64,000 bases of DNA from the NCBI GenBank assembly GCA_964597575.1, contig CAZQXB010000001.1, positions 964 through 64,963 of the forward strand, in the 5' to 3' direction. Of this stretch, positions 13,852-44,515 are shown one piece after another; the stretch's first letter is position 1; the number at the start of each line of letters is the position of its first letter. The position numbers and the translations under genes are program-made. The notes beneath the pieces were generated by a model. It was not told the origin of the DNA. It saw nothing but the letters and a program-made list of their open reading frames with translations, and ran no database searches. This DNA is from an uncultured Gammaproteobacteria bacterium (GTDB lineage: Bacteria; Patescibacteriota; Patescibacteriia; Magasanikbacterales; UBA922).

Positions 13852-14077
13852 GTGGACAAAAAGAAAAGCGTCGACAAAAGTGGAACGCGGGAAAAAAACT
13901 TCTCATTTCATCTTATGTACCGCCAGAGATGAGAGGGGGCTCGGATGATATGTCTCACTTTTTGTAAAAAATTAAGAATCTAAAAACCGGACCAGATTAG
14001 AGAGGGGAACAAAGTTGCTCGACACCTTCTAACCTAGCCCGGCCGGTGCGCGAATGCGCGTTTCGCTCGAGCGTATA

Positions 14078-14599
14078 TTACGCGAGCAATTTCGTGAGTT
14101 CGAGCTTCGCCTGGTGCACGAGCCCCTTCACGGCAAGTACCGTGGTCTGGAGTTCTTCGGCGATCTCTTCGAGAGACTTTCCGATGAGGTAAAGCCTGAT
14201 GGCACTTTGCCGCTTCGGAGTAAGCTTGCTGATTGCCCAATTCAGAGCATAGGCTTGGCGACGCTTCTCGAGCACAGAGTCAGGAGACTCGTCGTTGTCG
14301 GCCGCGGCCACCTCTTCGTCGAGCTCGTCAGTCACGCGATGCTTCCTTCTACGCAACTCATCGAGGGACAGGTTGCGAACGATCTGGAAAAACCACGTGG
14401 ATGGTTTGGCCCGGCCGTTGAACTTCGAACGGTTTGCGTAAGCCTGCATGAAAGCCCTTTGCGCAACGTCCTCTGCAACCTCAGGATTCCGAAGAATCTT
14501 TTCTGCCACTCCGCAAGCTGATCCGCGATATCTGCGGAAGAGCTCCACGAAGCTCGCATCATTGAGCACGTTTGTAGTTGCCACTGTTCCGCTGTTCAT
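14078..14599 (-). CDS. ECF-type RNA polymerase sigma-70 factor, located in a GC-rich island
   Basis: Region 2 (FMQAYANRSKFNGRAKPSTWFFQIVRNL) and region 4 HTH (LTPKRQSAIRLYLIGKSLEEIAEELQTTVLAVKGLVHQAK). About 58% GC versus ~43% in the flanks. Confidence 0.75.
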   Translation of the reverse strand: MNSGTVATTNVLNDASFVELFRRYRGSACGVAEKILRNPEVAEDVAQRAFMQAYANRSKFNGRAKPSTWFFQIVRNLSLDELRRRKHRVTDELDEEVAAADNDESPDSVLEKRRQAYALNWAISKLTPKRQSAIRLYLIGKSLEEIAEELQTTVLAVKGLVHQAKLELTKLLA

Positions 14600-14794
14600 G
14601 ATTCCCTCTCCCCGTTCTCAGGCGAATTTGCCCGCATGTTTGTCTCAACTGTTTCTCTAAAAAAATAATACTGCCATCTGGCAATAGGTACAAGCAAGTA
14701 CCAGAATGACCAATCACAGTATCACAGAAGCACTCTTTTGTCAATGTGATTGTGCCAATACTATATATAAAAATATCTAAAATAAGCTAAAAAA

Positions 14795-14812
14795 CAACAA
14801 AACCACGATAAA
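14795..14812 (-). terminator. Terminator after the 5S rRNA
   Basis: The minus strand reads ccacg-tttat-cgtgg followed by ttttgttgtttttt. Confidence 0.5.
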
Positions 14813-14845
14813 CGTGGCATGTAGGAAATTGATCGTGAAGTATAT

Positions 14846-14960
14846 AGTTCCTGGCACTGGCCTACTCTTGCCTTGCGACTACCATTGGCGCTGACAGGCT
14901 TAACTGCCGAGTTCGAGATGGGATCGGGTGTGGCCCTGTCGCTCATAGCACCAGGAACAA
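14846..14960 (-). rRNA. rrf: 5S rRNA
   Basis: The reverse complement contains canonical 5S segments (ccgatcccatctcgaactcggcagttaagc...). Ends are approximate, +/-5 nt. Confidence 0.85.
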
Positions 14961-15007
14961 TATACTCCATGATTTGTACCCAACAAAAAAATGTATTCAA
15001 GCACGTG

Positions 15008-18400
<3,393 letters not shown>

Positions 18401-18736
18401 AAAACACAAAATTGTACTTCCGCCTATTTTATATACTCTATAAAATAGATGTGTTGCTTACATTTGTTGGTTGGTACGTCAATTGTAATGGGCAATACTC
18501 CAGCACAGTCAGTCTGTCAGCATCGAAACAGTCACACGACTTTCCAAAATGTTTTTGGACAATCGTGTATTTATTTCACGAAAAAAACCGCGTCGTCGCG
18601 GCCTATGGGTCGCACGTCTGACGTCTTGGTTTGGTCACTGGTTTTACCCAGTGGTTAGTTGTAACACGGAGAAGCGAATGTTACTGTGCCAAACCCAGAG
18701 GTCTAGAGGCTTTTCAGCCAGACGTGGTCCTTTTGA

Positions 18737-18766
18737 GGGAAACTTGCACATTTCATTTGTGTTGAC
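18737..18766 (-). promoter_or_regulatory. Sigma-70-like promoter upstream of the 23S-5S operon
   Basis: The minus strand reads TTGACA-cccctcaagaaggcgtg-TATCAT with a 17-nt spacer, embedded in a near-palindrome. Confidence 0.4.
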
Positions 18767-18949
18767 ATGATACACGCCTTCTTGAGGGGTGTCAAGGGGA
18801 AGAAATACGTCCAAACTGTGGAAAAGTGTGGATAGGTGTGGATAAGTAAGCGAGGCCACTCAAATGAATTGAAAACAGCGCAGATTCCGAGAGTTATGGA
18901 TTCTGCGCTGCCCTTGAAAAAATAAGATGGGCTCTCCCCGCCATCTTCC

Positions 18950-19474
18950 CTACTTTCCGGGCCTCGATCGTGGTCGGACTGCGGCGTCCCCCGGACCAAC
19001 AGCACGAGAACGGTGTCGCCACGGCTCTGCGATAGGTGGCATGGGGTCGACCTCGACGTCTTCGGGGTTCCCTTGCTCGCGCTCACACACCTGCTTCAGC
19101 TTTCTCCGAAACGCTGCGATACACCGAGTGGTCACGATGGCGTGGTTGTCCCCAAACAAAGGGGCGGCGGCCAACGCGAGCGCCTCATCCCGTTCACCAC
19201 TCAGAATATCCGCAGCCGAACTTTTTTCGAGCTCTGCCACAAATACGGCGAACAATTGGTCGAGGCTGGGGATCTCGGGGGACGTTCCGGAAGGTGCACG
19301 CTCCCTCCTTCTTGTGGCCGAACTCGATAGATGGGCGTAGAGCCCAATAACCTCGTTATCGAGATTGCCCACACCCGTTTTTTCGACGAGCACTCTTCGC
19401 AGGATTTCGTCGAGAGAAGCTTGCCTGAATCCGGTCATTTTTGTGTAAACCTCCGGCACATATCGTGCGCTCAA
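18950..19474 (-). CDS. Hypothetical protein in a GC-rich island (174 aa)
   Basis: ORF with ~60% GC and a downstream imperfect hairpin at 18877-18915. No recognisable domain. Confidence 0.35.
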   Translation of the reverse strand: MSARYVPEVYTKMTGFRQASLDEILRRVLVEKTGVGNLDNEVIGLYAHLSSSATRRRERAPSGTSPEIPSLDQLFAVFVAELEKSSAADILSGERDEALALAAAPLFGDNHAIVTTRCIAAFRRKLKQVCEREQGNPEDVEVDPMPPIAEPWRHRSRAVGPGDAAVRPRSRPGK

Positions 19475-19547
19475 TTGCCGCTTTTGTCAATACTTCCTTC
19501 AGTTGAAACTTCCCTCTTTTTCTTCTATACTCACCGTACATTCCTCT

Positions 19548-20027
19548 ATGTTATCTATTCATATTATTGTTGTTGGGAGCCACAAAGAATCGTATTTTAA
19601 AGAAGCTGAAGCAGAATACCTGAAACGACTCACTCCGTATGCAAAAATAAAAATAACACAAATACCCGAACACTCTTTTCGAGCAGATGAACCCCGAGAA
19701 AAAAGCCAAGAAGTTGAGGCCGAAAAAATCATGAAATATCTTTTGGGAGATGCAGGGAATACCTATATTATAGTGCTCGATGAAAAAGGAAAGCTGAAAG
19801 ATTCCGTTGCACTGAGCAAGCACCTTCAAGAAATCGGCCAAAATGGCACGCCGCTTACGATTATTATTGGAGGGCCTCGCGGACTCTCCCCTTCACTTGT
19901 GAAAAAAGCCAACCTGGTGCTCTCCCTATCTCCTCTTACATTTCCTCATCAGCTTGTTCGTGTTATACTCGCGGAACAACTGTACCGAGCGGGAACCATT
20001 GCCGCCGGTAAAACCTACCATTATTAA
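19548..20027 (+). CDS. rlmH: 23S rRNA (pseudouridine1915-N3)-methyltransferase RlmH (SPOUT)
   Basis: IIVVGSHKESYF...GGPRGLS...LSLSPLTFPHQLVRVILAEQLYRA. The start was chosen at MLSIHII. Confidence 0.8.
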   Translation: MLSIHIIVVGSHKESYFKEAEAEYLKRLTPYAKIKITQIPEHSFRADEPREKSQEVEAEKIMKYLLGDAGNTYIIVLDEKGKLKDSVALSKHLQEIGQNGTPLTIIIGGPRGLSPSLVKKANLVLSLSPLTFPHQLVRVILAEQLYRAGTIAAGKTYHY

Positions 20028-20028
20028 T

Positions 20029-21099
20029 ATGTCTCAAGCAAAATCACGTTCTTGGCTTCTCCCACTTTCCATTCTTCTCAGCGGCGCGCTTATTGCTGGA
20101 ACTATTCTATATACGCAAAAAAATCCGAGTGAAGAAAAACAAAGAGAAACAAAAGCTATTCCGGAATGTACCGGTGCCGCGAGTCAACAATTTTCCTGCT
20201 TGAAAGATCGCTACCATGAACTGGTCATGCAACGCTCCACAAAAGAAGCGTTTGACGAACTGAAAACGACCTACAACACGAACACATTTGTGCAATCAAG
20301 CTGCCACCAACTTACTCATATTATTGGCCGCGCAGCTGCTGAGCGCTACGGGGATGTTCCGACTGCTTTTGGCCAAGGCGATAGTTTTTGCTGGAGTGGA
20401 CATTACCATGGAGTCATGGAATTTGTGGCGGCAAAAATCGGTTTAGAAAACCTAACAAAAGAATTACCGAATATTTGCAAAAGCATCGCCGAAAAAGACA
20501 CGTACTCATTCGACCACTATAACTGCGTGCACGGTTTGGGTCACGGGGTTATGGGGGTAAATAGTAATGAATTATTTGTAGCACTTGAAAGCTGTAACGC
20601 GCTGACCGATTGGTGGGAACGCGAATCATGTTACGGCGGAGTATTCATGGAAAATGTGATGGTGGATTTTAACAATGAAACCACAACAAAATATTTGAAA
20701 CCAGAAGACCCGATGTACCCATGCAACGCGGTTGAAGAAAAATACAAACAACAGTGCTACCTCATGCAAACATCGTATGCGCTCAAAGTGCAGGGCTATA
20801 ACTTCAAAACCGTGTTTGGCTTATGTGATGCAACAGAAGAAAAATTCCGTGATACCTGCTACCAAAGCTTAGGCCGCGACGCTTCTGGCAACACGGTCAG
20901 TAACTTGCAAGGCACCAAAGAGCGTTGCTTACTTGGGAAAGACTATCGTGCACAGTCAAACTGTGTTATCGGGGCCGTGAAAGATTTTGTTTCGTATCAT
21001 CACAGCGATGTTCAGGCGAAAGAACTCTGTAATGCTTTTGAACCAAAGATTGCTGAGCTGTGCCACGCGACGATAACCGAATACTACAAATCCTTCTAA
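20029..21099 (+). CDS. Cys/His-rich secreted or membrane-anchored protein of unknown function
   Basis: N-terminal TM/signal segment (WLLPLSILLSGALIAGTILY). Many Cys residues and repeated HG.GHG motifs (CVHGLGHGVMG, CWSGHYHGVMEF). Confidence 0.5.
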   Translation: MSQAKSRSWLLPLSILLSGALIAGTILYTQKNPSEEKQRETKAIPECTGAASQQFSCLKDRYHELVMQRSTKEAFDELKTTYNTNTFVQSSCHQLTHIIGRAAAERYGDVPTAFGQGDSFCWSGHYHGVMEFVAAKIGLENLTKELPNICKSIAEKDTYSFDHYNCVHGLGHGVMGVNSNELFVALESCNALTDWWERESCYGGVFMENVMVDFNNETTTKYLKPEDPMYPCNAVEEKYKQQCYLMQTSYALKVQGYNFKTVFGLCDATEEKFRDTCYQSLGRDASGNTVSNLQGTKERCLLGKDYRAQSNCVIGAVKDFVSYHHSDVQAKELCNAFEPKIAELCHATITEYYKSF

Positions 21100-21107
21100 A
21101 CTTTTTT

Positions 21108-21470: not shown

Positions 21471-21481
21471 TTACACTCACC

Positions 21482-22237: not shown

Positions 22238-22243
22238 AATGAG

Positions 22244-22272
22244 TTGACAAAACGAACAAAATGTGCTACACT
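22244..22272 (+). promoter_or_regulatory. Strong sigma-70 promoter for the metzincin gene
   Basis: TTGACA (22244-22249), a 17-nt spacer, then TACACT (22267-22272). An AAGGAG RBS sits 5 nt before the GTG start at 22344. Confidence 0.5.
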
Positions 22273-22343: not shown

Positions 22344-23039
22344 GTGCGTACCATTACGCTTCTCGTGTTTGCAGTCATGCTCCTTGGATTCGTCCAGAAG
22401 CAAGACTCGCACAACACGCCCGTTCGCATGGAGTCGGATGTGATCCCGCTCTACGTGATCGGCGACGACTTTCCCATTCCGGAGCACCGCATTCGCGAGG
22501 CCCTCAGCACGTGGACCGCCACGTGTTCGAACCTCGAAGTGGTGCTGACCGAGACCCCGGCCGATGGCGTGATCCCTGAGGGGTCGATCACGGTCCAGTG
22601 GGACATGGTGTGGACGAGGAAGCCAGGCCTACCCGCTGAAACCGACACAGAGATCAGCGGAGGAAGAATCATCGGGGCTCACATCTTCATGAACGGAACC
22701 CAGAAGGATCTCTCCCCGACACCGCCCGACTGCTCGTCAGGCAAGTATGATGCAGCCCGAGTGTTTGCCCACGAAGTCGGGCACGCAATCGGCTTCGATC
22801 ACGCCGAGGGTGATCCCGGGCGTCGAATGTTCGCGACTGCGCTGAAAAACAAACTTCTTGACCCTCTCGACCAAGACGGTCGAAATGGAATCTGCGCCGT
22901 CTATCCCGTTCGGGAAGTTCCACCAGAAGTTGGTTGCTCGTGCACCGCTATCCCAGGAGGTCGTGTCGGTCTTGCGACCATCCTTCTCGTCATAGCACTC
23001 CTCCTTCTCCGAGTGAACAGCTTTTGGGAAGGAAAGTGA
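22344..23039 (+). CDS. Secreted zinc metalloprotease of the metzincin type (HEVGHAIGFDH) with a C-terminal hydrophobic anchor; in a GC-rich island
   Basis: HExxHxxGxxH motif, N-terminal signal peptide and C-terminal TM (LATILLVIALLLL). GTG start with a good RBS. ~59% GC. Confidence 0.6.
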   Translation: MRTITLLVFAVMLLGFVQKQDSHNTPVRMESDVIPLYVIGDDFPIPEHRIREALSTWTATCSNLEVVLTETPADGVIPEGSITVQWDMVWTRKPGLPAETDTEISGGRIIGAHIFMNGTQKDLSPTPPDCSSGKYDAARVFAHEVGHAIGFDHAEGDPGRRMFATALKNKLLDPLDQDGRNGICAVYPVREVPPEVGCSCTAIPGGRVGLATILLVIALLLLRVNSFWEGK

Positions 23040-25069: not shown

Positions 25070-25118
25070 ATATGCACGATAGTTAACCAGAAAAACGCAT
25101 CTTGGTCAATAATCCCTC

Positions 25119-26631: not shown

Positions 26632-27045
26632 TCATCTACGCCTCTTCTTCATCCGACGGGCCCGTTCTTGTCGAACACCCTCATAGCGCGCTTGAACGAA
26701 GCTCGCATACGGCAGGGTGACGCCTCTTGTGAGGCACTGAGGCGCACCCACCGCTTCTTCCTTAGCACACTCGTACGCCTTGGTGAACCACTTCTCGGGA
26801 AGGAGACGAAGAAGGGTGCACGGTGGCCACACGAACAGAAAGAACCTGACGGGGGAAGCGAAGAAGAGTCCAGACAGAGCGAGCGTTACCGCTCCCATGG
26901 CTGCGCCGGACGTTCTGGCCGGAGCGTGAGCTCCGAGCCGCAGAAGCAGGCCGACCAACGACCAGCCGAGAAGAAGCAGGAGCACCATACAGAGGAAGAG
27001 CCGGTGAATCATGACCCACCGGTAGACCTTTTTGCTGTATCTCAT
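26632..27045 (-). CDS. Hypothetical 2-TM membrane protein in a GC-rich island; paralog of the upstream gene
   Basis: Shares architecture and a FLFxxPPxxxxRLP motif with 27042..27452. Confidence 0.45.
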   Translation of the reverse strand: MRYSKKVYRWVMIHRLFLCMVLLLLLGWSLVGLLLRLGAHAPARTSGAAMGAVTLALSGLFFASPVRFFLFVWPPCTLLRLLPEKWFTKAYECAKEEAVGAPQCLTRGVTLPYASFVQARYEGVRQERARRMKKRRR

Positions 27046-27452
27046 ATAGCTCTCCTTTTCCCATGAGGTGAACTCACGATGCCTCGACTCTGCATCTCGA
27101 GGCGCAAGTGCGCGCGACGAATACGCAATGCTTCGATTTTTTTCGGGTTTACAGCGGCATTATAATCCGCATCAACCTTCCTGTAGAGAAGCCTCAGGTT
27201 TGTCGTCGGCAGGCGACGAATGAACCAAGCTGGCGGATTGAGAAACAGCAGCACCTCAACTGGTCGAGAGAAATACGAAATCGCAAAGGCGATAGGTAAG
27301 ACGAGAATCCCCATGGCAACTCCCAAAATCCACTGGGGCACCCGCACTCCAAGTTCGGCCAAGAGCAAAACGATAACTCCGACCAGAAGTGGCAAGTAGA
27401 TACAGAGAAAAAACTTCCAGTGGCACTGGGTGGGCACACTTGCTTTGTTCAT
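27042..27452 (-). CDS. Hypothetical 2-TM membrane protein in a GC-rich island; paralog of the downstream gene
   Basis: The two genes are a tandem pair with a 4-nt overlap. The motif here reads LLFLNPPAWFIRRLP. Confidence 0.45.
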   Translation of the reverse strand: MNKASVPTQCHWKFFLCIYLPLLVGVIVLLLAELGVRVPQWILGVAMGILVLPIAFAISYFSRPVEVLLFLNPPAWFIRRLPTTNLRLLYRKVDADYNAAVNPKKIEALRIRRAHLRLEMQSRGIVSSPHGKRRAI

Positions 27453-33482: not shown

Positions 33483-33932
33483 ATGAACAGCAAAATTAAC
33501 ATTTCCCACCTACTCCTCCCGGCTGTAAAGATCGTGGAGGACCTGAAAAGACGAGTGCCTGGTCTTAAAACCTGGCATGTGGAACTCACCTTCGTTGTGG
33601 TGTTTCACACGATTTTCAATCTTCTCATCTTGGGTAACTTTCGCGAGTTCTTCGTCGGAATCGGACCCATGGTCTCAGGCATCTGCCTTGACCAGGTTCA
33701 ATTCCGGCTCGATGAGCTCGAGCAAAAACGGAGTGAACGGGGCGAGGCTGTACTCCACTGTCATATGTGGAGAATGAGATACTACTGGCTCGGGCAACTG
33801 AGTTGGATTGTATACTACGTTGATCACGAGGCCTACACGGGTCTCGTGGCAATCGCAGTTCTCGGGTTCGGTTACCCGGCCTGGCGCAAAGCCTGGAGAG
33901 AACACCACCCAATCAAGCTCGATAGAGCTTAG
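33483..33932 (+). CDS. Hypothetical membrane protein in a GC-rich island
   Basis: An RBS gagg precedes ATG 33483. It has two hydrophobic segments and is followed by a terminator-like hairpin near 34063-34092. Confidence 0.4.
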   Translation: MNSKINISHLLLPAVKIVEDLKRRVPGLKTWHVELTFVVVFHTIFNLLILGNFREFFVGIGPMVSGICLDQVQFRLDELEQKRSERGEAVLHCHMWRMRYYWLGQLSWIVYYVDHEAYTGLVAIAVLGFGYPAWRKAWREHHPIKLDRA

Positions 33933-34264
33933 CTAAAGAGCGAATCGACCACCCTTCTGGCATTCTAGCTCCAGAGGAATGGAAGATGGACCCCGCTTGC
34001 CATCATCGATTCTTTTTTGAGGAATACATTTCTTTGAAGAAGAATGATGACAAGCGGAACGATCAAAAAACTGACCACACGGTCGGTTTTTTGTTTTCCT
34101 CCTGTGTGACTTTTTTGAATGTCTCGACAAGCAAAAGTTTACTCTCGATGCGCGCGCATCTGTACATCTATACACAAACCTTGACTTATTCACCGATTGG
34201 TGATGTTTTTGTCATGCTTTACCCAGACAAACCCATCGAGGTGTCTTGATGAAGCAAGGAGTCA

Positions 34265-34834
34265 GTGATGCAAAAAATGAAGGAAAGAGGGTGGATGGCC
34301 CTCATCGGCATCTTCCTCTCCGTTCTCGCCGCCGCGTGCGGCGGAACCGATGATGGGTTCGAGACCAGCGAGGCCGCAGTGGTCTCATGCAATCTCAGCT
34401 CTGTCCATGGCACGTCCCTTCTGCCGGCCACTGTGCCTGGTCTGCAGATGCACACCTGCCTCGCGAACGGATCGTGCACCCCGATCACGGAGTACAGCGA
34501 GGACGGATGCGTCCCCCTGAACGGTGATACCTGGCAGTTCTGGTTGGGCCTGAGCACGAACGGTAACAAGGTGCTCGTACGCCAAGGGGGTGTCACAGGT
34601 CGTGACTTCCGGGTCACGAACAATAGCCAGATCCGGAACATTCGCGTTGGGTTCGAGCAGGTGGCCGGCGTGTTTTACTCCACGCCGACCGTCATCCTAC
34701 CGGGGCAGACACGTGACGTGTACGGGCCCACAGGCGTCATACCCGTCGTTTCCAAGTTCCGCGCGGAGATCGTAACGCCCCCCGAGAACAACTGGAACGG
34801 ATTGTTGCCGATCCAGGTCCTTCTCATCGACTGA
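34265..34834 (+). CDS. Secreted lipoprotein (lipobox LAAAC) in a GC-rich island
   Basis: Signal peptide plus Cys (MALIGIFLSVLAAACGG). ~60% GC. Confidence 0.5.
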   Translation: MMQKMKERGWMALIGIFLSVLAAACGGTDDGFETSEAAVVSCNLSSVHGTSLLPATVPGLQMHTCLANGSCTPITEYSEDGCVPLNGDTWQFWLGLSTNGNKVLVRQGGVTGRDFRVTNNSQIRNIRVGFEQVAGVFYSTPTVILPGQTRDVYGPTGVIPVVSKFRAEIVTPPENNWNGLLPIQVLLID

Positions 34835-38000: not shown

Positions 38001-38975
38001 GAGATCGTTCAAATCTGACGTTGCAAAACGACCACCGTCGAGCGCGACCATTGGGCGAAGATCTGGAGGGATAACAGGAAGAGCGGTGAGGATCATCCAT
38101 TCTGGACGAATATTATTTTTTTCCAAACTCTTCAAGAGCTTGATACGGCGCACCAAACGTTCATGCTTCGCACCTTTGCTTTTCGCAAGTTCTGCTTCTA
38201 AACGAGTAATCGTTTCTTTCACATTGAGGCGTGTGAGAAGTTCGTGAATACCACCAGCACCAATGCTTGCTTCAAATAAATGACCATAGCGGAGAGCAAG
38301 TTCTTGGTACCGATTTTCACTCACAATCGACATGACGGCAATGTCTTTCAAATCGTCTGTTGCAGATGAGAATTCTTCATCGAGCGCTTCATATTTTTCC
38401 TGGCGCTCTTTTTCTAATGCAGAAACTACTTTCGCTTCGCCTTCTTTTTGTGCAATACGAGCTGCGTAGTCTTTTTCAATTTGCTTTTTCTTTGATTTAT
38501 ATTCTAACTTTAAGGCGGCTTCGGTCGCTTCTTTTTCTGCCTCGTCAACCGAGGTAATAATAAACGACGCAAAGTAAATCACTTTTTCTAATGCTTGAAT
38601 CGAAAGATCAAGCACAAGACCCACCTTTGATGGAATCGAACGGAGGAACCAAATATGGGACACCGGTGCAGCAAGCTCAATATGACCCATGCGTTCACGA
38701 CGAACAAGTGAGTGTGTTACCTCTACCCCACACTTGTCACACACAATTCCTTTATAGCGAATCTTTTTGTATTTTCCACAGTAACACTCCCAGTCTTTGG
38801 TCGGCCCAAAAATTTCCTCAGCAAAGAGCCCGCCTTTTTCTGGTTTTTGGGTACGATAGTTAATCGTTTCTGGTTTCACAACTTCACCGTGTGACCATTT
38901 GCGAATAACCTCAGGCGACGCAACTTTCAGTGCCAGAGCGTCGAATTCAATTGATGGAGCATGATTTCTCATCAT
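35043..38975 (-). CDS. rpoC: DNA-directed RNA polymerase subunit beta'
   Basis: NADFDGDQM catalytic motif, the zinc-binding N-terminus and full-length conservation. Confidence 0.95.
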   Translation of the reverse strand: MMRNHAPSIEFDALALKVASPEVIRKWSHGEVVKPETINYRTQKPEKGGLFAEEIFGPTKDWECYCGKYKKIRYKGIVCDKCGVEVTHSLVRRERMGHIELAAPVSHIWFLRSIPSKVGLVLDLSIQALEKVIYFASFIITSVDEAEKEATEAALKLEYKSKKKQIEKDYAARIAQKEGEAKVVSALEKERQEKYEALDEEFSSATDDLKDIAVMSIVSENRYQELALRYGHLFEASIGAGGIHELLTRLNVKETITRLEAELAKSKGAKHERLVRRIKLLKSLEKNNIRPEWMILTALPVIPPDLRPMVALDGGRFATSDLNDLYRRVINRNNRLERLLDLHAPEVICRNEKRMLQEAVDALIDNNARAAKTVTASTGQKRQLRSLADILKGKQGRFRQNLLGKRVDYSGRSVIVVGPHLHIDECGLPKRMALELFKPFVMSQIIKRELAHNVRSASRFIETNAPEVWDILEEITKNTRVLLNRAPTLHRLGIQAFRPQLVEGKAIQLHPLVCPAFNADFDGDQMAVHVPLTKEAKWEAENLMASEKNLLKPATGAPVITPQQDIALGSYYLTKYREDDKADVKKFFSSITEAQFAYKMRKIKLKERIKVRFDDMSKFPAGTSHLIETSIGRIFFNEILPNKLPYYNESITKTHLGNIIQLLLEFYGQEKTAHVLDDMKRLGFRYVTRSGYSLGMDNFGTIPEKPGFLAEGDAEVRIVEDQFAEGLLTDSERHAKVLEIWTGVKDRVVSKNKEALNRDGSVFAMIDSKARGSWAQIGQVIGMKGLVASPSGEIIELPVKGNFKEGFDVLEFFISSHGVRKGLSDTALRTANAGYLTRRLVDVAQDVVIMEDDCGDTVGELVTKEGSEKIGEKLSERVMGRYVLADALASDGSVLVSAGEVVTEELARQVEKRGVTNMHVRSVLQCLLPKGVCMKCYGFDLSNNGSVKHGVAVGIIAAQSIGEPGTQLTMRTFHTGGVAGGSDITQGLPRVEELFEARAPKRSAVLSEIAGEVTIEDADGKVITGPTGRKIFEGRRGQKIVKITGTGPAEDTYEVLPADDVKVETGMVVEKGDVLMIRGSGEEVKAIQGGTVRTGGKEMVVSLPGSLTKEYVIPIGYKIWVKEGETVERGHQLTEGSVNLQELFELKGRDAVQRYILAEIQAIYAGQGQRLNDKHVEIIIKQMFSRVYVEDAGDTELLPGEVIEKAQFLLANLEMKKTKKKPALARELFLGISKVSLSTQSFLSAASFQETSKVLINAAITGKVDYLDGLKENVIIGRLIPVGTGFRKEAADAPINDLSKEVVASEEVAA

Positions 38976-38993
38976 AAAGAGTGGCTAGAGAGA

Positions 38994-41900
38994 TTAGAAG
39001 CGTGAATCGGACTGAAGGCGACCGCCGTTGTCGCTGTCATCTTCTGACGGTTTTGGCATAACGCTTTCCGCTGAAACATATGCCCCATTATCCATGGCTT
39101 TTAAAAGCTCAACATCTAAACACAGACCCTTCAGCTCTCGGACCAAGACGTTAAACGATTCTGGTAAGTTCACGCGGGTAATCGGTTCACCCTTTATAAT
39201 AGCCTCGTATGCTTTTGAGCGGCCTGGAACATCGTCGGACTTGATGGTCAAAATTTCCTGCAAGGTATGAGCCGCTCCATAGGCTTGAAGCGCCCAGACT
39301 TCCATTTCTCCGAAACGCTGACCACCGAACTGCGCCTTACCTCCCAAAGGCTGTTGCGTAATCAAACTGTAGGAACCAATGGAGCGTTGATGAATTTTAT
39401 CTTCTACCATGTGGTTCAACTTGAGCATGTAAGAGTACCCAACCGTTGTCTTGTGATCAAAGGCTTCACCCGTACGGCCGTCAAACAACTGCAACTGACC
39501 ATCTACCGGAAGTCCGGCTTCAGTGAGGGCCCCCTTGATCTGTTCTTCGGTAATACCATTTAGTACTGGAGTAGCAACGCGGTATCCAAGAGCGTTCGCT
39601 GCCAAACCCATATGGGTTTCAAGCAGCTGCCCTAAGTTCATACGGGAAATAACCCCGAGCGGTGAAAGGATAATATCAACGGGTGTTCCGTCATCCAAAA
39701 ATGGCATGTCTTCAACAGGAACTACCTTTGAAATAACACCTTTGTTTCCATGGCGGCCGGCCATCTTATCTCCGACTTGAACCTTACGGAGGTCAGCAAC
39801 CGTAACCTGCACCTGCTTAATAACCCCTGGTTGGAGTTTATCCCCCTCTTCGGCCGAGAACACTTTAATATCAATGACCTTACCGTTTTCACCGCCTTGT
39901 AAATAAAGAGATGAGTCACGAACATCACGAGCTTTTTCACCGAAGATCGCACGAAGCAACCGTTCTTCTGGAGTGAGTTCGGTTTCACCTTTTGGCGTAA
40001 TCTTTCCTACCAAAATGTCACCGGAATGTACTTCAGCTCCGATACGAACGACACCTTCAGAATCCAAATTCTTTAACTTTTCTTCTGAGACGTTTGGAAT
40101 GTCGGCAGTCACTACTTCAGGTCCGAGTTTCGTTTCGCGAACGTCGGTCGAATAGTCTTCCACATGAATCGACGTGTAGCGATCTTGCTGTACGAGACGT
40201 TCAGAAATGATAATAGCATCTTCGTAGTTGTATCCATCCCATACCATGTAGGCAACTAAAACGTTTTGACCAAGCGCAAGTTCACCATTATCAATCGCAG
40301 GACCATCACAAATCACTTGGCCTTTTTTCACCTTGTCGCCCAATTTTACAATCGGACGCTGGTTGATACAGCTTGAGTTGTTCGAGCGAATAAACTTGTT
40401 CAATGGGTAGGTAACCACTTTTCCTTTCTTTGAGGTAATTTCAACATGCTCACTGTCAACCGCCGTAACTTCGCCCTCTTCTTCTGAAGTAATCGCGTGA
40501 CCACTGTCAGTTGCGGCACGTGCTTCAATACCAGTTCCAACAAATGGTGCGTCGGGTTTAATGCATGGAACAGCTTGGCGCTGCATGTTCGTACCCATAA
40601 GACCACGGGTCGCATCGTCGTGTTCAAGAAACGGAATCAAACTGGTTGCGATACTAATAATTTGATTTGAAGCAACATCGACGTAATCAATGTTCTCTGG
40701 AGTTGCCGTACCAGGTTTTCCTTTAATACGAGCTGGAACACGGTCAGCCAAGATCAAACCACGCTCACCCATAGCAATGGTAGCTGCAGCAGTGGTAGCG
40801 CGTTCTTCATCAAACGAATTGAGGTAGACAATTTCTTGTGACACGCGAGGTTGCACCAAAATGGTTTTGACATTTTTTGCGCCTTCCAATTTTTTAGCAA
40901 TCTCTTTTGTAATCTTTGTTCCAGCGGCCACACCAGCAACCTCATCGCGCAAAATTTCATCTTCGGTAAAGCGCGCTTCATTTGGCACTTCACGAATCAC
41001 TTTGCGATATGGCGTTTCAATAAATCCAAATTCATTTACTTTTGCGTAACTTGATAAATGGCCCACGAGACCGATGTTCGGACCTTCAGGTGTTGCAATC
41101 GGACAAATACGACCGTAGTGAGTCGTGTGTACGTCACGAACTTCGAACCCTGCGCGATCACGAGAAAGACCGCCAGGTCCAAGAGCAGACACACGGCGCT
41201 TATGTTCAAGTTCAGCGAGTGGGTTCACCTGATCCATGAATTGGGAAAGCTGGGAACTCATGAAGAACTCACGTACTGCTCCAATAACCGGACGAGCATT
41301 GATGAGTTTATTTGGCATGAGACCTTCTACTTCGTAGGTGCTCATGCGGTCTTTAATGATGCGCTCCATGCGGGCAAGACCAATGCGGAAACGGTTTTGA
41401 ACCAATTCTCCAACTGCGCGAACACGGCGGTTTCCAAGGTGATCAATATCATCAGGGTCTTCCTGAGTCACGTTCAAACGAATGACTTCACGAAGAACAT
41501 GCACTAATTTCTCTGGAGAAAGAATACGTTCTTCTTTTTTGTCGAAGTCGGTATTTTCAAGACCCAAATTAAATTTCGTTGAAAACTTATAGACACCCAC
41601 GCGACCAAGATCGTACCGATCGAAATTCGTAAACATGGCCTGAATCAAACCGCGTGCGTTTTCAGCCGTTGCCAAATCTCCTGGACGAATACGTTTATAC
41701 ACTTCAATCAAACCCTCGTCTTCATTTGTCGCCACATCTTTTTTAAGTGTGTTGTCGACAAAATCAATATTAGAATGTGTATTCACTTCGGTAAAAAGCT
41801 GCTTAATCTGATCATCATTTCCGTATCCAAAAGCACGCAAAAGTGATGTTGCTGCCACTTTGCGTTTTCGATCAACTTTAATCCAGATCACGTTGTTTTG

Positions 41901-42458
41901 ATCTGTTTCAATTTCAATCCACGCTCCGCGATTTGGAATGATTTTTGCTCCGTAAAAACGGCGACCACGAACAGTTTCCGCGGTAAAGAATGCTCCAGGA
42001 GAGCGAATCAACTGTGAAATCACCACACGTTCAATACCATTCACCACAAACGTTCCGCGTGGTGTCATGATTGGTACGTCGCCCAAATATATCTGTTGGC
42101 GATGTTCTGCACCAGTGCGTTTGTTGCGTAAACGAACCTGTACACGAAGCGGCGCCTCGAAGGTAATATTTTTTTCACGGCACGTTACTTCGTTAAACTT
42201 TGGCTCATCAAGCGTATACTCTTCAAAGTAAAGCTCTAAATCACGACCCGTAAAGTCAGTGATCGGAGAAATTTCATCAAACAATTCACGAATCCCGGCA
42301 TCGAAAAACCAGGCATACGAGGATTTCTGCACCTCAATGAGGTCAGGCAATTCAGCTGCACGGGCCGACTCCTTGAAAAACTTCCGTTCCGGCAACACCG
42401 TTTTTTGCCGCTTGTAGATGGGCATAAGGCAACGATTTGTATAAAAAACGTGAGACAC
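38994..42458 (-). CDS. rpoB: DNA-directed RNA polymerase subunit beta
   Basis: Full-length conservation, including GDKMAGRHGNKGV. Confidence 0.95.
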   Translation of the reverse strand: MSHVFYTNRCLMPIYKRQKTVLPERKFFKESARAAELPDLIEVQKSSYAWFFDAGIRELFDEISPITDFTGRDLELYFEEYTLDEPKFNEVTCREKNITFEAPLRVQVRLRNKRTGAEHRQQIYLGDVPIMTPRGTFVVNGIERVVISQLIRSPGAFFTAETVRGRRFYGAKIIPNRGAWIEIETDQNNVIWIKVDRKRKVAATSLLRAFGYGNDDQIKQLFTEVNTHSNIDFVDNTLKKDVATNEDEGLIEVYKRIRPGDLATAENARGLIQAMFTNFDRYDLGRVGVYKFSTKFNLGLENTDFDKKEERILSPEKLVHVLREVIRLNVTQEDPDDIDHLGNRRVRAVGELVQNRFRIGLARMERIIKDRMSTYEVEGLMPNKLINARPVIGAVREFFMSSQLSQFMDQVNPLAELEHKRRVSALGPGGLSRDRAGFEVRDVHTTHYGRICPIATPEGPNIGLVGHLSSYAKVNEFGFIETPYRKVIREVPNEARFTEDEILRDEVAGVAAGTKITKEIAKKLEGAKNVKTILVQPRVSQEIVYLNSFDEERATTAAATIAMGERGLILADRVPARIKGKPGTATPENIDYVDVASNQIISIATSLIPFLEHDDATRGLMGTNMQRQAVPCIKPDAPFVGTGIEARAATDSGHAITSEEEGEVTAVDSEHVEITSKKGKVVTYPLNKFIRSNNSSCINQRPIVKLGDKVKKGQVICDGPAIDNGELALGQNVLVAYMVWDGYNYEDAIIISERLVQQDRYTSIHVEDYSTDVRETKLGPEVVTADIPNVSEEKLKNLDSEGVVRIGAEVHSGDILVGKITPKGETELTPEERLLRAIFGEKARDVRDSSLYLQGGENGKVIDIKVFSAEEGDKLQPGVIKQVQVTVADLRKVQVGDKMAGRHGNKGVISKVVPVEDMPFLDDGTPVDIILSPLGVISRMNLGQLLETHMGLAANALGYRVATPVLNGITEEQIKGALTEAGLPVDGQLQLFDGRTGEAFDHKTTVGYSYMLKLNHMVEDKIHQRSIGSYSLITQQPLGGKAQFGGQRFGEMEVWALQAYGAAHTLQEILTIKSDDVPGRSKAYEAIIKGEPITRVNLPESFNVLVRELKGLCLDVELLKAMDNGAYVSAESVMPKPSEDDSDNGGRLQSDSRF

Positions 42459-42902
42459 AGTCCGCGCAGAGATATTATTCGAAAATAATTTCTGAGCAGG
42501 CCGCTGACTAGCGTTTACCCGTGACTACCGGAGACAACAAAAAATTCGGCGTATTGCCGCTTTCGATAAAACGTTTATTGTGTTGCCAAGTGGCGCATGG
42601 AGAGAATCCCTCTACGCTTTTTAAGCGCCCGAAGCACCCAAAAAGTGGTGTACTTCAGAAAGGTACTGTGCCTGGCTCTCCGACAAAGGACATATCAGCC
42701 GCAACTACTGGTCCTGGCACTAAAAAGAAACTGGGCCTAGTATAGAGATAAATTGGCTCTTTGTCAAATAGAACGCTGTGGATTTCTTCTGTCAAGGCAG
42801 AAAGGTATAATTTGCTCTACTCAGCAAAATAATTGAAATAAACAGTATATACACTTTTCTATATACACATATTTATCCACAGGGTGCTCTTTACAGAGCG
42901 AA

Positions 42903-42937
42903 ATATGTTGACAAATAACAGAGACAGTGGTATATTT
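42903..42937 (+). promoter_or_regulatory. Candidate sigma-70 promoter facing the GC-rich gene at 43214
   Basis: TTGACA-aataacagagacagtgg-TATATT with a 17-nt spacer. Confidence 0.35.
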
Positions 42938-43213
42938 TGTTGTTACTAGAGAAGGTGTCCTTCTTAGTACACATACTGTACCTCGCTTCAGCACACTGAG
43001 GCAAAGAGAGAAAGGAACATGACGTGGGTTTTCTACTCGCAACATGCCTCTTTCTCCCCTCTTACCCGGGCCGATATTTCGGCCAGGAACTAGAGGGCAC
43101 ATGTGCGGCCACGATGTGAAGAAAACTCATCACCTCGCGGCCGCACAAGTGGGGGAATCAGAGTACAAAAAAGACAACCAGCCCCTCATGAGGGTGCGGC
43201 AAGGAGCCGCACC

Positions 43214-43744
43214 ATGAAGACCAGTATCTTCTCTCTCATGAGCTACGTCGCTTATGTCTTTCTGTCCGTCGGGTTTGGGGTCGGTATCGGCCTCACCTGC
43301 TACGGAATGTCACTCTCGGAATTCTTGAAAAAAATTCCGATGGGTACCGCTGCCATGGCGGCGACCTACGAATTTCTCCGGATCAAGGAGACAGAAATCG
43401 TGCTTTCGGGCACGAACACCTCCTCGGTCAGTGCGCCAGAAATGCTCGAGCCAGTCGAGCCAGCAATCATCAGTGAACGGTCGGCACTTTCGCAACCCCT
43501 GAAGCGAGGATACTATATCCTCCCCAGTGGTCAGGAAGTGGCGGTAACCGGGCACATGCAGGTGCCGAAAACTGGCCTGCGACGCGCGGCGGTCAAGTTC
43601 TTCGAAAAAGGACTTGGTCACGCATCAAGCGAAGCAACAGAGGCGTGCAACGCGCCTCTCTCGGGAGAACCCAGAACGTACTGGCGTGAAAAACCAGACA
43701 AAACCCCCCGAATCATCAACATCTGTGTCTGGATCCGATCCTGA
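43214..43744 (+). CDS. Hypothetical membrane protein in a GC-rich island
   Basis: AAGGAG RBS. An N-terminal TM segment (VAYVFLSVGFGVGIGLTCYG). Confidence 0.4.
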   Translation: MKTSIFSLMSYVAYVFLSVGFGVGIGLTCYGMSLSEFLKKIPMGTAAMAATYEFLRIKETEIVLSGTNTSSVSAPEMLEPVEPAIISERSALSQPLKRGYYILPSGQEVAVTGHMQVPKTGLRRAAVKFFEKGLGHASSEATEACNAPLSGEPRTYWREKPDKTPRIINICVWIRS

Positions 43745-43885
43745 CGCAGCGCCCTCAGACAGAGGGTGATAACAGTTCGAAGGAGGTAAGAGTAGAGGAC
43801 AAGCCATTCATCACTTGTCCTCCCTATCCACAGTCGCATTACCTGTGCTACAGTGGGTGGGCAATACAGCCACCGAGGAGGGACA

Positions 43886-43999
43886 ATGAAGGAAACCATG
43901 AAGGCGGCCCTGGCCGTTTTTATCATTCTAGGCCTCCTTCTCGCCACGATTACCAAGGCGAACGGGTGCATGGAGGAGGAGATAAAAAAAGTAAAATAA
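43886..43999 (+). CDS. 37-aa small secreted peptide candidate (MKETMKAALAVFIILGLLLATITKANGCMEEEIKKVK)
   Basis: A GAGGAGGG RBS lies 6 nt upstream. It is a signal-peptide-like ORF with a single Cys. Confidence 0.3.
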   Translation: MKETMKAALAVFIILGLLLATITKANGCMEEEIKKVK

Positions 44000-44055
44000 A
44001 AAAAGAGAAGCTCTCGTCTTCGAAAATGAAGCGCTGAGACTACTGTACATCCGGA

Positions 44056-44376
44056 TTGACAAGGAATTGTACCGTGAAGAAATTTAGCCTCGGACTACTT
44101 GCCCTTGCGGCCACCCTCATCCCGCTCGGCTGCGGACCAGACTACGTAGAACCACTGTCGAGAGGAGACGTGCGCCTCACGAACTTCGGCAACTTCATGG
44201 ATTGTCGAGTGACTGAGAGGTATCTCCAAACGGACGAAGCGCGCAGAAGAGGCCTTACCCCGCCGAAGGGTCGGTGTGTCAACCTGAACGCCGACAATCA
44301 GTCCCCGTCGTCAACGTCGACGGCTACCCAAGCCCCTTCCGCAACAACCACCTCGGTCATTTCCAACCTCAACTAG
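44056..44376 (+). CDS. Small lipoprotein (GCGP lipobox) in a GC-rich island
   Basis: LLALAATLIPLGCGPDY, followed by a Ser/Thr-rich C-terminus. Confidence 0.45.
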   Translation: MTRNCTVKKFSLGLLALAATLIPLGCGPDYVEPLSRGDVRLTNFGNFMDCRVTERYLQTDEARRRGLTPPKGRCVNLNADNQSPSSTSTATQAPSATTTSVISNLN

Positions 44377-44515
44377 GATTCGCTTGACGCGCAGCCCTCT
44401 GCCTCGCGAATCCCCCAACTCATTTTATTGGTTTTAGACGAATAAAATGAACTGGGAACACCCGACCGCAAGACACGCGGATTTTTTTTTGCTACAATAG
44501 ACGCACCATGCTTCT

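Follow-up and report, generated by a model that had tools for sequence, protein, structure and literature searches.

The window, i.e., the whole stretch of 64 kb of a Candidatus Magasanikbacteria chromosome that was analysed, has a GC-content of 46.1%, with a standard deviation of 0.050 among windows of 200 bp. A two-state HMM divided it into a background of 45.2% GC and six GC-rich segments of 55–62% GC:

14037-14635, 56.4% GC
18929-19345, 62.1% GC
22308-23055, 59.0% GC
26573-27119, 59.0% GC
34289-34911, 61.6% GC
43056-44416, 55.1% GC, merging the last two islands of the initial annotation

All six segments lie within 14-44.4 kb and none was called across the remaining 33.6 kb. They exceed the background by 5–8 standard deviations (binomial standard deviation of about 0.02 for 600 bp) and agree with ORF limits to about 20–80 bp, the promoters and leaders having a normal GC-content. 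Island ORFs exhibited a GC3 of 0.54–0.78 versus 0.31–0.51 (about 0.40) for other plausible genes. The compositional mosaic described in the initial annotation is thus confirmed by the HMM as well as by GC3. Seven of the eight islands listed there fall inside HMM segments, whereas the one at 33530-33930 has only about 53% GC and was not called, with an ORF GC3 of 0.62. Likewise, of two paralogues at 26600-27450 that had both been described as GC-rich, the one at 26632-27045 reaches 59% GC and the one at 27042-27452 only 51%.

Genes and features of the islands

The island ORFs, named I1 to I8, and the features associated with them are:

14078..14599, minus strand: I1, ECF-type sigma factor, 173 aa, GC 55%, GC3 0.65
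18950..19438, minus strand: I2, soluble orphan protein, about 162 aa, GC 58%, GC3 0.61
22244..22272, plus strand: sigma-70-like promoter of I3, TTGACA-17-TACACT with extended -10 TG
22344..23039, plus strand: I3, secreted metzincin-like metalloprotease, 231 aa, GC 58.5%, GC3 0.66
26632..27045, minus strand: I4a, small basic membrane protein, 137 aa, GC 59%, GC3 0.67
27042..27452, minus strand: I4b, tandem distant paralogue of I4a, 136 aa, GC 51%, GC3 0.56 (intermediate)
33483..33932, plus strand: I5, four-helix membrane protein, 149 aa, GC about 51–53%, GC3 0.62 (weakest island)
33945..34095, plus strand: structured non-coding element, conserved, with a bidirectional terminator hairpin at its end (34064-34093)
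34268..34834, plus strand: I6, orphan lipoprotein with lipobox LAAAC, 188 aa, GC 60%, GC3 0.78 (strongest island)
43103..43744, plus strand: I7, secreted or membrane protein, N-terminally anchored, Cys-containing, GC 55.5%, GC3 0.60–0.65
43886..43999, plus strand: tentative small ORF of 37 aa, MKETMKAALAVFIILGLLLATITKANGC..., with a GGAGG SD site, inside the same GC-rich segment as I7 and I8
44074..44376, plus strand: I8, signal-peptide protein of about 100 aa, MKKFSLGLLALAATLIPLGC..., with a Ser/Thr-rich tail, GC 57%, GC3 0.66

I1 lies directly downstream of the 5S rRNA gene in the same direction. Its earlier identification as an ECF sigma factor holds, as the protein contains sigma-2 and sigma-4 domains only (Pfam Sigma70_r2, E 2e-16, and r4_2) and reaches 96.7 bits for TIGR02937 (cutoff 42.9). 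At the downstream position where a co-transcribed anti-sigma factor might be expected, there is an acidic, AT-rich ORF (13507-13851) which matched no family and, in its likely form, lacks a transmembrane segment. I2 is located upstream of the 23S rRNA promoter; its start is assumed to be the ATG at 19438, with the frame being open to a TTG at 19474. Its coding periodicity is significant (p = 0.008), and searches of Pfam, PHROG, NCBIfam and PADLOC yielded no match.

I3 combines an N-terminal signal peptide, the motif HEVGHAIGFDH, which reads as the zinc site HExxHxxGxxH, and a C-terminal anchor of the type GCSC...TM. The metzincin identity assigned to it previously is carried by this motif, with the Pfam M10 match being borderline (E 3.8e-5, 24.1 bits versus a cutoff of 24) and comparison with the PDB yielding weak MMP matches from the active-site helix to the domain end, i.e., in the catalytic C-half (E 2e-3). 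The nearest named family, the myxobacterial MXAN_2677/2678 metalloproteases of NCBIfam, scored 36 bits, far under its cutoff, and a single-sequence AF2 model was too poor for use (pLDDT 39). The sigma-70-like promoter of I3 sits in a leader of normal GC-content (0.44). For I4a, which has two hydrophobic segments, and I4b, BLASTP revealed 39% identity over 49 aa (E 5e-7), which bears out the distant paralogy of the tandem pair.

I5 belongs to a widespread, uncharacterised family with about 80 distant cluster representatives, and its AF2 model (pLDDT 90) matched no known fold. The non-coding element which follows it is 85–95% identical in the relatives L084 and L090, although the flanking cassettes differ there. 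It thereby forms the fixed border of the variable slot occupied by I6; a consensus fold was obtained for it, and no Rfam family matched. I6 itself shows a strong periodicity (p = 4e-11) and is preceded by a leader (34094-34267) with a promoter and an SD site of normal GC-content. Depending on whether translation of I7 starts with the ATG at 43214 or the GTG at 43103, its product comprises 176 or 213 aa, and it shares the C-terminal motif ATEACNAP...YW...PD...N(I/V)C with its homologues; the promoter TTGACA-17-TATATT is located at 42908-42936. The 37-aa ORF encodes a hydrophobic segment.

Two of the proteins had been annotated as lipoproteins. This is correct for I6, whereas I8 has a signal peptide plus a Cys residue and not a canonical lipobox. 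Also the statement that the islands encode mostly secreted or membrane proteins or a regulator stands in part: eight of ten island ORFs contain a hydrophobic segment as compared to 16 of 36 other genes, a suggestive envelope enrichment only (Fisher p = 0.07), and the product of I2 is soluble.

Island leaders have a GC-content of 39–45% and contain TTGACA/extended -10 promoters and SD sites. Ahead of I1 and I3–I7, both a consensus promoter and an SD site were found, and terminator-like hairpins lie near I5, I6 and I4a, all of these being pattern matches. It is therefore also predicted that most islands have their own sigma-70-like promoters and ribosome binding sites, as had been proposed.

Integrity of the assembly and coding capacity

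Four independent single-run Logan contigs, each present in two to three samples, are 100% identical to the window over every junction, and the same island proteins are also found on a 914-kb NCBI contig. The islands are consequently not chimeric, and the mis-assembly that had been put forward as an alternative is excluded. About ten short island ORFs are genuine genes. They exhibit coding periodicity (G1/C3) together with a strong, frame-specific bias toward C- and G-ending codons, which sets them apart from the core genes (ATC 0.72 versus 0.23, TTC 0.67 versus 0.23, AAC 0.76 versus 0.38). With a GC3 of about 0.65, they use CTC as their main codon for Leu (CTC > CTG), and 32% of their Arg codons are AGA or AGG. 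The third-position pyrimidine/purine balance is equal in islands and core, so that the shift is one from W to S only. As rpoB, rpoC and the gene for S15 lack the codon preference of the islands, ordinary translational selection does not account for it.

High-GC DNA yields long ORFs on both strands, and the GC-rich stretches indeed also hold antisense ORFs of 100–200 aa. Moreover, I8 has a weak periodicity (p = 0.095), was not called by public gene callers and had no match in the protein collection, even to itself, and the 37-aa ORF is absent from all gene calls. Nevertheless, it is extremely improbable that the islands as a whole are an artefact, whether of chimeric assembly, of binning contamination or of chance ORFs in GC-rich non-coding DNA, given the identical junctions, the 914-kb contig and the frame-specific codon bias, the domain matches of I1 and I3, and the orthologs of I5, I7 and I4, which are under purifying selection or in conserved synteny.

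Slot reuse and turnover in relatives

The islands occupy slots between conserved genes, namely aldolase|5S-23S|SPOUT methyltransferase, Smr|hypothetical proteins, PNPase|photolyase, yebC|rpoC and rpoB|ftsK. The rpoC|yebC gap comprises only 115–250 bp in L002, L005, L006 and L007, and unrelated GC-rich genes in L004, L008 and L090. It holds I5 and I6 in the window, and I5 together with an unrelated AT-rich lipoprotein gene (204 aa) at the place of I6 in L084. The I5 ortholog of L084 (P0009) is syntenic and 86–87% identical, with a dN/dS of about 0.11. In L090, a different orphan takes the place of I5, and I6 is absent from both L084 and L090. The ftsK|rpoB gap contains GC-rich orphans in L003 and homologues of I7 in L088 and L161, and unrelated GC-rich genes follow PNPase in L098, L102, L105, L108 and L146. 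A homologue of I4a (28% identity) with a GC3 of just 0.51 was found in the same slot of L090/L091. Most islands are missing at the syntenic slots of most relatives, including close ones.

[quoted passage not shown] Of 96 CPR loci, 19 contain GC3-outlier ORFs, 30 in total and with a median length of 200 aa, the GC3 of which is about 0.64–0.68, regardless of whether the background GC3 is 0.2 or 0.5. Islands of sister genomes include genes for a formyltransferase, a PfkB kinase and GGACT. The comparison with sister genomes suggested in the initial annotation thus revealed that genes are present sporadically and that in some relatives one gene has fully taken the place of another in a given slot. 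What the lineage as a whole carries is an accessory gene set with a fast turnover, and this does not prove that genes were stolen from a GC-rich host.

Mobility features

As had been noted before, no transposase or integrase accompanies the islands: no such Pfam domain was found in the islands or in any neighbouring gene. Att-like, flanking or shared repeats were not found at the islands either, and the sole duplicate of a tRNA end in the window (24810/24986) is located away from any island. Features of integron cassettes are also missing, as the islands are dispersed and show no conserved inverted repeat at the cassette ends and no integrase. Their neighbours (rRNA genes, rpoBC, PNPase, ftsK, recA) are housekeeping genes and do not belong to a prophage. 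A PHROG scan of the islands matched the sigma factor only. No relative of any island protein was found among INPHARED phages and PLSDB plasmids, or among IMG/VR viral contigs, for which the scan covered I1, I5 and the I7 family.

Search for a donor

Protein collections of 5.8 to 15 billion proteins, including NCBI genomes and metagenomes, and 1.84 billion representatives were searched. The best non-self homologues of I1 are 30–34% identical, I3 matched only itself in 5.8 billion proteins, and I2, I4a, I4b and I6 matched only their own cluster among the 1.84 billion representatives at the level of 50% identity, where orthologs of I2, I4 and I6 that are more than 50% identical could be concealed within these clusters.

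A repeated recent transfer from a high-GC cellular donor, for example an actinobacterial host, with the GC excess being the signature of un-ameliorated import, appears very unlikely in view of these results. It would fit with the atypical composition and the sharp boundaries, with strain-specific genes such as I6, which has the highest GC3 and is missing from L084 and L090, with the myxobacterial family nearest to I3 and with the GC-rich contexts of I5-family relatives. However, the promoters and leaders are host-like, I7 and I4 predate species splits, and the Magasanikbacteria lineage has no known host. Actinobacteria in particular have a codon usage unlike the one described above for the islands, and the suggested actinobacterial donor is therefore not supported. 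The broader proposal of repeated acquisition from a high-GC donor fares better in so far as genes are replaced in the same slots and the I5 family occurs in a 66%-GC element; no close donor was found, the proposal is not demonstrated, and it fails for at least one island, I7.

Composition of I7 in three species

The homologues of I7 in L088 and L161, two other Magasanikbacteria, occupy the same rpoB|ftsK slot and are 34–39% identical to it. In the comparison of the three species, amino-acid identity is 37–42% and synonymous divergence is saturated (dS 1.7–2.3), and yet GC3 of I7 is 0.64–0.68, also at codons for identical residues, whereas rpoB of the three genomes has a GC3 of 0.39–0.52. According to a simple decay model, GC3 of I7 should have dropped to at most about 0.53–0.57, even from an ancestral GC3 of 1.0. 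A fading import can therefore not explain I7, and something other than recent import maintains its composition. Relatives with the same GC excess, which the initial annotation had named as evidence against acquisition, thus exist for this gene, and I7 lends support to the alternative given there, a distinct regime for surface and regulatory genes. A GC excess conserved among orthologs was found for I7 only; I5, with a GC3 of 0.62/0.58 in two lineages at a dS of 0.75–1.2, is compatible with it, and the I4 family is not uniform (GC3 0.51 to 0.67).

It might be supposed that all islands are long-term resident genes, the synonymous sites of which are held GC-high by a gene-specific force. This force may be a selection that acts, for rarely expressed or secreted proteins, on the choice of codons or on properties of the mRNA, or else a GC-biased fixation at loci prone to recombination. 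In this case, a high GC-content would be the mark of a gene class and not of a foreign origin. Besides I7 and I5, the restriction of the excess to ORFs behind native promoters and the W-to-S shift at an unchanged pyrimidine/purine balance fit with this idea. We nevertheless consider it unlikely, though by no means far-fetched. The adjoining ends of rpoC, rpoB, ftsK and PNPase, where heteroduplex-based biased conversion should act, show no rise in GC3, and the codon preference is not found in rpoB, rpoC and the S15 gene. That the gene class can do without a high GC-content is shown by an AT-rich lipoprotein gene in L084 and an AT-rich ECF-like sigma factor in L111. The I4 family is heterogeneous, and close relatives lack most islands. 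To our knowledge, no such GC-maintaining mechanism has been established for bacteria.

A proposed flexible pool of single-gene cassettes

Genuine genes with a distinct codon usage, which reuse the same slots, replace one another among relatives and have no close donors, are best explained, if tentatively, as moron-like cassettes of one gene each, which stem from a flexible, GC-rich pool of genes and are swapped at fixed slots. A sigma-70-type promoter of its own, an SD site and a single short ORF, in most cases followed by a terminator, would make up each cassette, and the core operons of the Candidatus Magasanikbacteria chromosome would leave a small number of conserved gaps in which the cassettes are placed. 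Of the proteins which they encode, eight have a signal peptide or a lipid anchor or are membrane proteins, the metzincin-like protease among them, and the other two are the ECF sigma factor and a soluble orphan. This content points to a variable, fast-evolving surface and regulatory equipment which may serve the interaction with a host or the environment. The pool would have a composition of its own (GC3 about 0.65, C/G-ending codons), and Magasanikbacteria throughout the lineage would gain its genes, lose them and exchange them at the same slots. Given that no mobility gene or flanking repeat was found, we infer recombination in the conserved flanks as the likely route, and the pool is probably fed at least partly by GC-richer mobile elements or bacteria.

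Several further observations touch on this proposed pool. One member of the I5 family resides in L160, a 66%-GC phage-like integrative element with an integrase, an excisionase-type HTH protein and a sigma factor, and I5-family proteins are mostly of a GC-rich amino-acid type; both speak in favour of a pool. The lack of mobility genes and repeats and of relatives in the viral and plasmid sets scanned counts against it, as does the retention of I7 in one slot of three species, un-ameliorated. A GC excess which is confined to ORFs behind native-looking promoters is odd for imported DNA. The variable GC3 of I4 also counts against a pool, as do the photolyase and radical-SAM genes, which are strain-variable (absent from L002) and yet not GC-rich.

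Comparison with known systems

Flexible genomic islets, or hypervariable replacement islands, are found in streamlined bacteria. Prochlorococcus, SAR11 and Salinibacter, for example, have such variable slots among their conserved genes, and further examples are O-antigen-type loci with a persistently atypical GC-content. The Magasanikbacteria islands resemble them in their fixed positions between core genes, with unrelated genes there in close relatives, in their mostly envelope or surface products, in the lack of mobility genes and in an atypical composition which persists across species. They differ in being single genes of 100–230 aa, nearly all orphans, instead of multi-gene clusters, and in being GC-richer than the core and not AT-richer. 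Phage morons are autonomous promoter-gene-terminator units of deviant GC-content between conserved genes. Similarly, the islands have a deviant composition and, as predicted from pattern matches, would comprise their own promoter, one ORF and a terminator, and the I5 family also occurs in a phage-like element. Unlike morons, they are located among chromosomal housekeeping genes (rpoBC, PNPase, rRNA), with no prophage and no relatives in the viral sets scanned. The vls locus of Borrelia is a GC-elevated antigenic-variation locus in an AT-rich bacterium. I7 likewise appears as a surface gene that holds its GC-content far above that of the genome across species while the protein diverges fast, but these 64 kb of a genome of roughly 0.9 Mb contain neither an array of silent cassettes nor a repeat or a paralogous donor.

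Genomic islands and gene transfer have been documented in Patescibacteria (PMC12455944). With classical genomic islands the loci described here share the atypical composition, the sporadic distribution and the enrichment in orphans. They differ from them by the single-gene scale and by the lack of an integrase, a tRNA target, a direct repeat or a donor, and from ameliorating islands by the unchanged composition of I7 over saturated synonymous divergence.

Implications

In bacteria, the core genome is generally GC-richer than the accessory genome (PMC5303225). The short variable slot genes of the sampled Magasanikbacteria are, on the contrary, 10–16 points GC-richer, opposite to most bacteria (PMC5303225). 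The result is also a warning not to take GC-rich islets of CPR genomes for host-derived when donor evidence is missing. It is conceivable, if quite unlikely, that in Magasanikbacteria, and perhaps in other CPR, a gene-specific process holds fast-evolving envelope and regulatory genes at a GC3 of about 0.65 versus 0.25–0.5 in the core. Such a process may be a locus-specific bias in fixation or repair, or a codon-based translation control of surface genes. If true, this would mean a second stable compositional equilibrium in one small chromosome, as is seen in I7 across saturated synonymous divergence. As I7 retains its GC excess far past the expected amelioration, the pool would, if the pattern holds, also provide a natural test of what determines GC-content: import, selection or biased fixation. 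If the pattern holds, CPR genomes would carry a compositionally marked, rapidly exchanged pool of surface genes, and such a pool would be a practical handle to the genes mediating host contact in uncultivated episymbionts.

Extent and anatomy of the GC-rich islands

Judged by RpoC, the window belongs to Candidatus Magasanikbacteria (Patescibacteria/CPR), with the top species representatives being 76-78% identical. Nearer relatives come from metagenomes.

Metagenomic loci closest to the window (amino-acid identity)
L084: rpoC 88%
L090/L091: rpoC 86%, PNPase 80%
L088: rpoB 85%
L161: rpoB 83%

The GC content of the window is 46.1%, with a standard deviation of 0.050 among 200-bp windows. A two-state HMM run over the whole window separated a background of 45.2% GC from six GC-rich segments, all of them within 14-44.4 kb and none in the rest of the window.

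GC-rich segments called by the HMM
14037-14635: 56% GC
18929-19345: 62% GC
22308-23055: 59% GC
26573-27119: 59% GC
34289-34911: 62% GC
43056-44416: 55% GC

The initial annotation had proposed eight GC-rich islands. These six segments bear out most of that picture, with the last segment fusing the last two islands, but the island at 33530-33930 has just ~53% GC and received no HMM call. Likewise, of the two paralogues at 26600-27450 described as GC-rich, one has 59% GC but the other 51%. A ninth candidate, 51291-51785, was dropped, as its GC is just 53% and a homologue adjoins the SpoIID-domain gene in the related locus L003. The island ORFs, numbered after the proposed islands, are:

I1, 14078..14599, minus strand, ECF-type sigma factor
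I2, 18950..19438, minus strand, soluble orphan
I3, 22344..23039, plus strand, metzincin-like metalloprotease
I4a, 26632..27045, minus strand, membrane protein
I4b, 27042..27452, minus strand, membrane protein paralogous to I4a
I5, 33483..33932, plus strand, four-helix membrane protein
I6, 34268..34834, plus strand, lipoprotein
I7, 43103..43744, plus strand, N-terminally anchored protein
I8, 44074..44376, plus strand, signal-peptide protein

GC3 of the island ORFs is 0.54-0.78, compared with 0.31-0.51 in all remaining plausible genes of the window. The edges of the GC-rich segments agree with the ORFs within ~20-80 bp, and the leaders 5′ of the ORFs have 39-45% GC. These leaders hold predicted promoters of the sigma-70 type, in many cases having an extended -10, as well as good SD sites, in keeping with the earlier suggestion that several islands have their own promoters and ribosome binding sites. 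As noted earlier, the islands are not accompanied by a transposase or integrase. Shared flanking repeats and REP-like or repeated hairpins were not found at the islands. The idea that the islands form an I1 regulon with a common ECF-type promoter motif was dropped in view of the sigma-70-type promoters upstream. Biased gene conversion spreading to the flanks was dropped too, as the ends of neighboring genes do not show a GC rise.

Coding evidence and predicted products

The chosen island frames exhibit a G1-rich and C3-rich periodicity (p = 4e-11 to 0.03), with I8 alone being weak, and the pooled codon usage of the islands is sharply unlike that of the core.

Codon fractions in islands and core
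ATC: islands 0.72, core 0.23
TTC: islands 0.67, core 0.23
AAC: islands 0.76, core 0.38
CAC: islands 0.79, core 0.37
CTC: islands 0.47, core 0.19
AGA + AGG: islands 0.32, core 0.08

It is highly improbable that the islands are an artefact. Four independent single-run Logan contigs, each found in two to three samples, match the window at 100% identity and together span every island junction (4078-15178; 18064-24917; 24889-39327; 39300-48121). The island proteins were also found on a 914-kb NCBI contig. Together, these matches exclude chimerism as far as can be judged from sequence.

The functions of the island products are predicted from domain and signal-peptide content. I1 was assigned to the ECF-type sigma factors, I6 contains a lipobox, and I4a is a distant tandem paralogue of I4b. 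I3 exhibits the motif HEVGHAIGFDH and weak matches to M10/MMP and to a myxobacterial metalloprotease family; its top NCBIfam match, the myxosortase-dependent metalloprotease family, scores 36 bits, the cutoff being 250, and an AF2 model from the single sequence failed (pLDDT 39). The C-terminus of I3 (22944-23039) consists of GCSCTAIPGG, a transmembrane helix and a basic residue, and thereby resembles Cys-containing C-terminal sorting signals. Between I7 and I8, the GC-rich segment holds an uncalled 37-aa ORF (43886-43999) whose SD is strong and whose N-terminal segment is hydrophobic. Signal or transmembrane segments are present in I3, I4a, I4b, I5, I7, I8 and this ORF. I2 is soluble. A hydrophobic segment is present in eight of ten island ORFs and in 16 of 36 others (p = 0.07), which makes the predominance of secreted, lipid-anchored or membrane proteins noted earlier no more than suggestive. 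A PADLOC defense-system scan of the islands yielded nothing meaningful.

Search for a donor

I3 matched nothing but itself in 5.8 billion proteins, and the top non-self matches of I1 are 30-34% identical. An exhaustive HMMER scan covered 1.84 billion cluster representatives. For I2, I4a, I4b and I6 it returned self matches alone; as the representatives were clustered at 50% identity, closer orthologs of these proteins could be hidden. The same scan yielded zero matches for I8, three proteins at 38-45% identity for I7, and one ortholog at 87% plus ~80 distant members for I5, whose family consists of uncharacterized four-helix membrane proteins. The good model of the I5 fold (pLDDT 90) found no match in PDB or BFVD. 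JGI metagenome contigs contained no further I7 relatives, and profiles of I5, I7 and I4 against all fetched loci revealed no hidden members in the slots of more distant relatives.

A viral origin was rejected, with no relatives of I1, I5 or the I7 family in IMG/VR, as was a phage or plasmid origin, with no relatives of I2-I8 in INPHARED phages or PLSDB plasmids. Among PHROG families, the sigma factor was the sole island match.

Repeated acquisition from a high-GC donor, speculatively an actinobacterial host, had been the leading idea of the initial annotation. Direct transfer from such a host is improbable and currently unsupported: the searches revealed no donor, the islands differ in codon usage from what is generally known of Actinobacteria, their promoters look native, and two island families are older than the species splits.

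Reuse of conserved slots across Magasanikbacteria

Several gaps between conserved core genes hold different genes in different relatives.

Occupants of conserved gaps
rpoC/yebC, L002, L005, L006, L007: gap of 115-250 bp
rpoC/yebC, L004: unrelated GC-rich formyltransferase-family gene, GC3 0.74
rpoC/yebC, L008: unrelated GC-rich gene(s)
rpoC/yebC, L090: unrelated GC-rich 164-aa orphan, GC3 0.72
rpoC/yebC, L084: I5 ortholog and unrelated AT-rich lipoprotein gene
rpoC/yebC, window: I5 and I6
ftsK/rpoB, L003: GC-rich orphans
ftsK/rpoB, L088, L161: I7 homologues
After PNPase, at least five further relatives: unrelated GC-rich genes

A survey of 96 CPR loci revealed 30 GC3-outlier ORFs (median 200 aa) in 19 loci, with an outlier GC3 of ~0.64-0.68 at a core GC3 of 0.2 as well as of 0.5. 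The idea that island GC tracks host GC at a constant offset was weakened by this larger sample, in which outlier GC3 is roughly constant at ~0.65. High GC is not common to all variable genes: the genes for the photolyase and the radical-SAM protein, which L002 lacks, have 40-42% GC. As the accessory genome of bacteria is generally AT-richer than the core (PMC5303225), the GC-rich direction observed here is unusual.

The rpoC/yebC gap also contains a structured non-coding element of ~150 nt (window 33945-34095; L084 1150-1280; L090 1085-1275, reverse strand), which comprises two hairpins as well as an intrinsic terminator and matches no Rfam family. The three genomes share it at 85-95% identity, with a core-gene dS >1 and with unrelated cassettes next to it. 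It directly adjoins the stop codon of rpoC in L090; in the window and L084 it is separated from rpoC by a gene cassette, with a second terminator-like hairpin as boundary. Possible identities are a small RNA and a 3′ element of rpoC.

Import signature or maintained composition

Syntenic relatives exist for three island families: I5, I4 and I7. Between window and L084, I5 has a dS of 0.75 and a dN/dS of ~0.11; its GC3 of 0.62 (window) and 0.58 (L084), compared with 0.37-0.43 in rpoC and yebC, is consistent with decay that began in a very GC-rich ancestor. Partial amelioration would likewise fit the heterogeneous GC3 of the I4 family (I4a 0.67, I4b 0.56, and 0.51 in the single L090 homologue, 28% identical and in the same slot).

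I7 behaves differently. Its copies in three species are 37-42% identical with saturated dS (1.7-2.3), yet GC3 is 0.64-0.68 in all three, identical-residue codons included; rpoB of these genomes, also with saturated dS, has a GC3 of 0.39-0.52. In a simple two-rate decay model (equilibrium 0.40, ancestral GC3 up to 1.0) present GC3 cannot exceed 0.57 at dS 1.5 and 0.51 at dS 2.0. As this ceiling lies below the GC3 of I7, its composition is either actively maintained or repeatedly re-imported, which contradicts simple acquisition as first proposed. A gene-specific force holding GC3 high in place is needed for I7 at least; as an account of the islands it is a serious rival, albeit a rather unlikely one.

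Hints of a foreign or mobile origin come from the I5 family, whose proteins are mostly of a GC-rich amino-acid type. One family member lies in L160 (1-12331; GCA_034680565.1, JAXOUH010052532.1), a phage-like element of 66% GC that consists of a series of short ORFs. These ORFs are co-directional and overlapping, and the element also encodes a tyrosine integrase, an excisionase-type HTH, T5orf172 and a Sigma70_r2 protein. In L085 (1500-8400; ENA CAOS20 scaffold_140), a ~7-kb block of 56-68% GC within a CPR-like contig of 42-45% consists almost throughout of orphan ORFs, with an I5-family gene at its end, likewise hinting at a foreign or mobile origin; this block is the same phenomenon in multi-gene form. 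An ECF-like sigma factor with 30% identity to I1 was found in the Magasanikbacteria relative L111 (9846-10250). Its gene lies in an AT-rich stretch (~28% GC; locus median 37%), so that in this lineage the sigma family is also present in native composition.

Further features of the window

I1 and I2 border the 23S-5S rRNA genes, the only rRNA genes in the 64-kb window, which lacks a 16S gene (5S at 14849-14955). The 23S gene (15029-18401) has 3373 nt compared with a 2925-nt model and therefore carries ~450 nt of insertions, within which no sizeable ORF was found. A tRNA-Ile gene at 3640-3713 has the anticodon TAT (UAU), an uncommon bacterial way to read AUA. The 3′ end of tRNA-Leu is exactly duplicated over 17 nt (24810-24826 and 24986-25002, 176 nt apart), and each copy adjoins a perfect or near-perfect 19-bp hairpin. 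This layout resembles the remnant of an att-type duplication, and independent assemblies end at this region (24772-25002). Strong strand asymmetry (GC skew ~-0.29, AT skew ~-0.28) marks 50800-52000, where a minus-strand ORF of 164 aa, rich in Lys/Arg, adjoins the SpoIID-domain gene; no family match was found for it, and L003 holds a 27%-identical homologue in the same neighborhood. A 408-aa MacB-type permease gene is present at 60384-61470.

Biological interpretation

Genomic islands and gene exchange as such have already been documented in Patescibacteria (PMC12455944), and flexible islets of atypical composition are likewise a familiar type of feature. New are the GC-richer-than-core polarity, the single-gene scale, the reuse of slots throughout a CPR lineage and the lack of amelioration in I7. 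The best-supported reading, still a tentative one, is that of moron-like single-gene cassettes; it is compatible with, and does not exclude, in-place maintenance of high GC3. Such cassettes would be drawn from a flexible gene pool with a composition of its own and would turn over at conserved inter-operon slots throughout Magasanikbacteria, where their products may provide variable envelope and regulatory functions.
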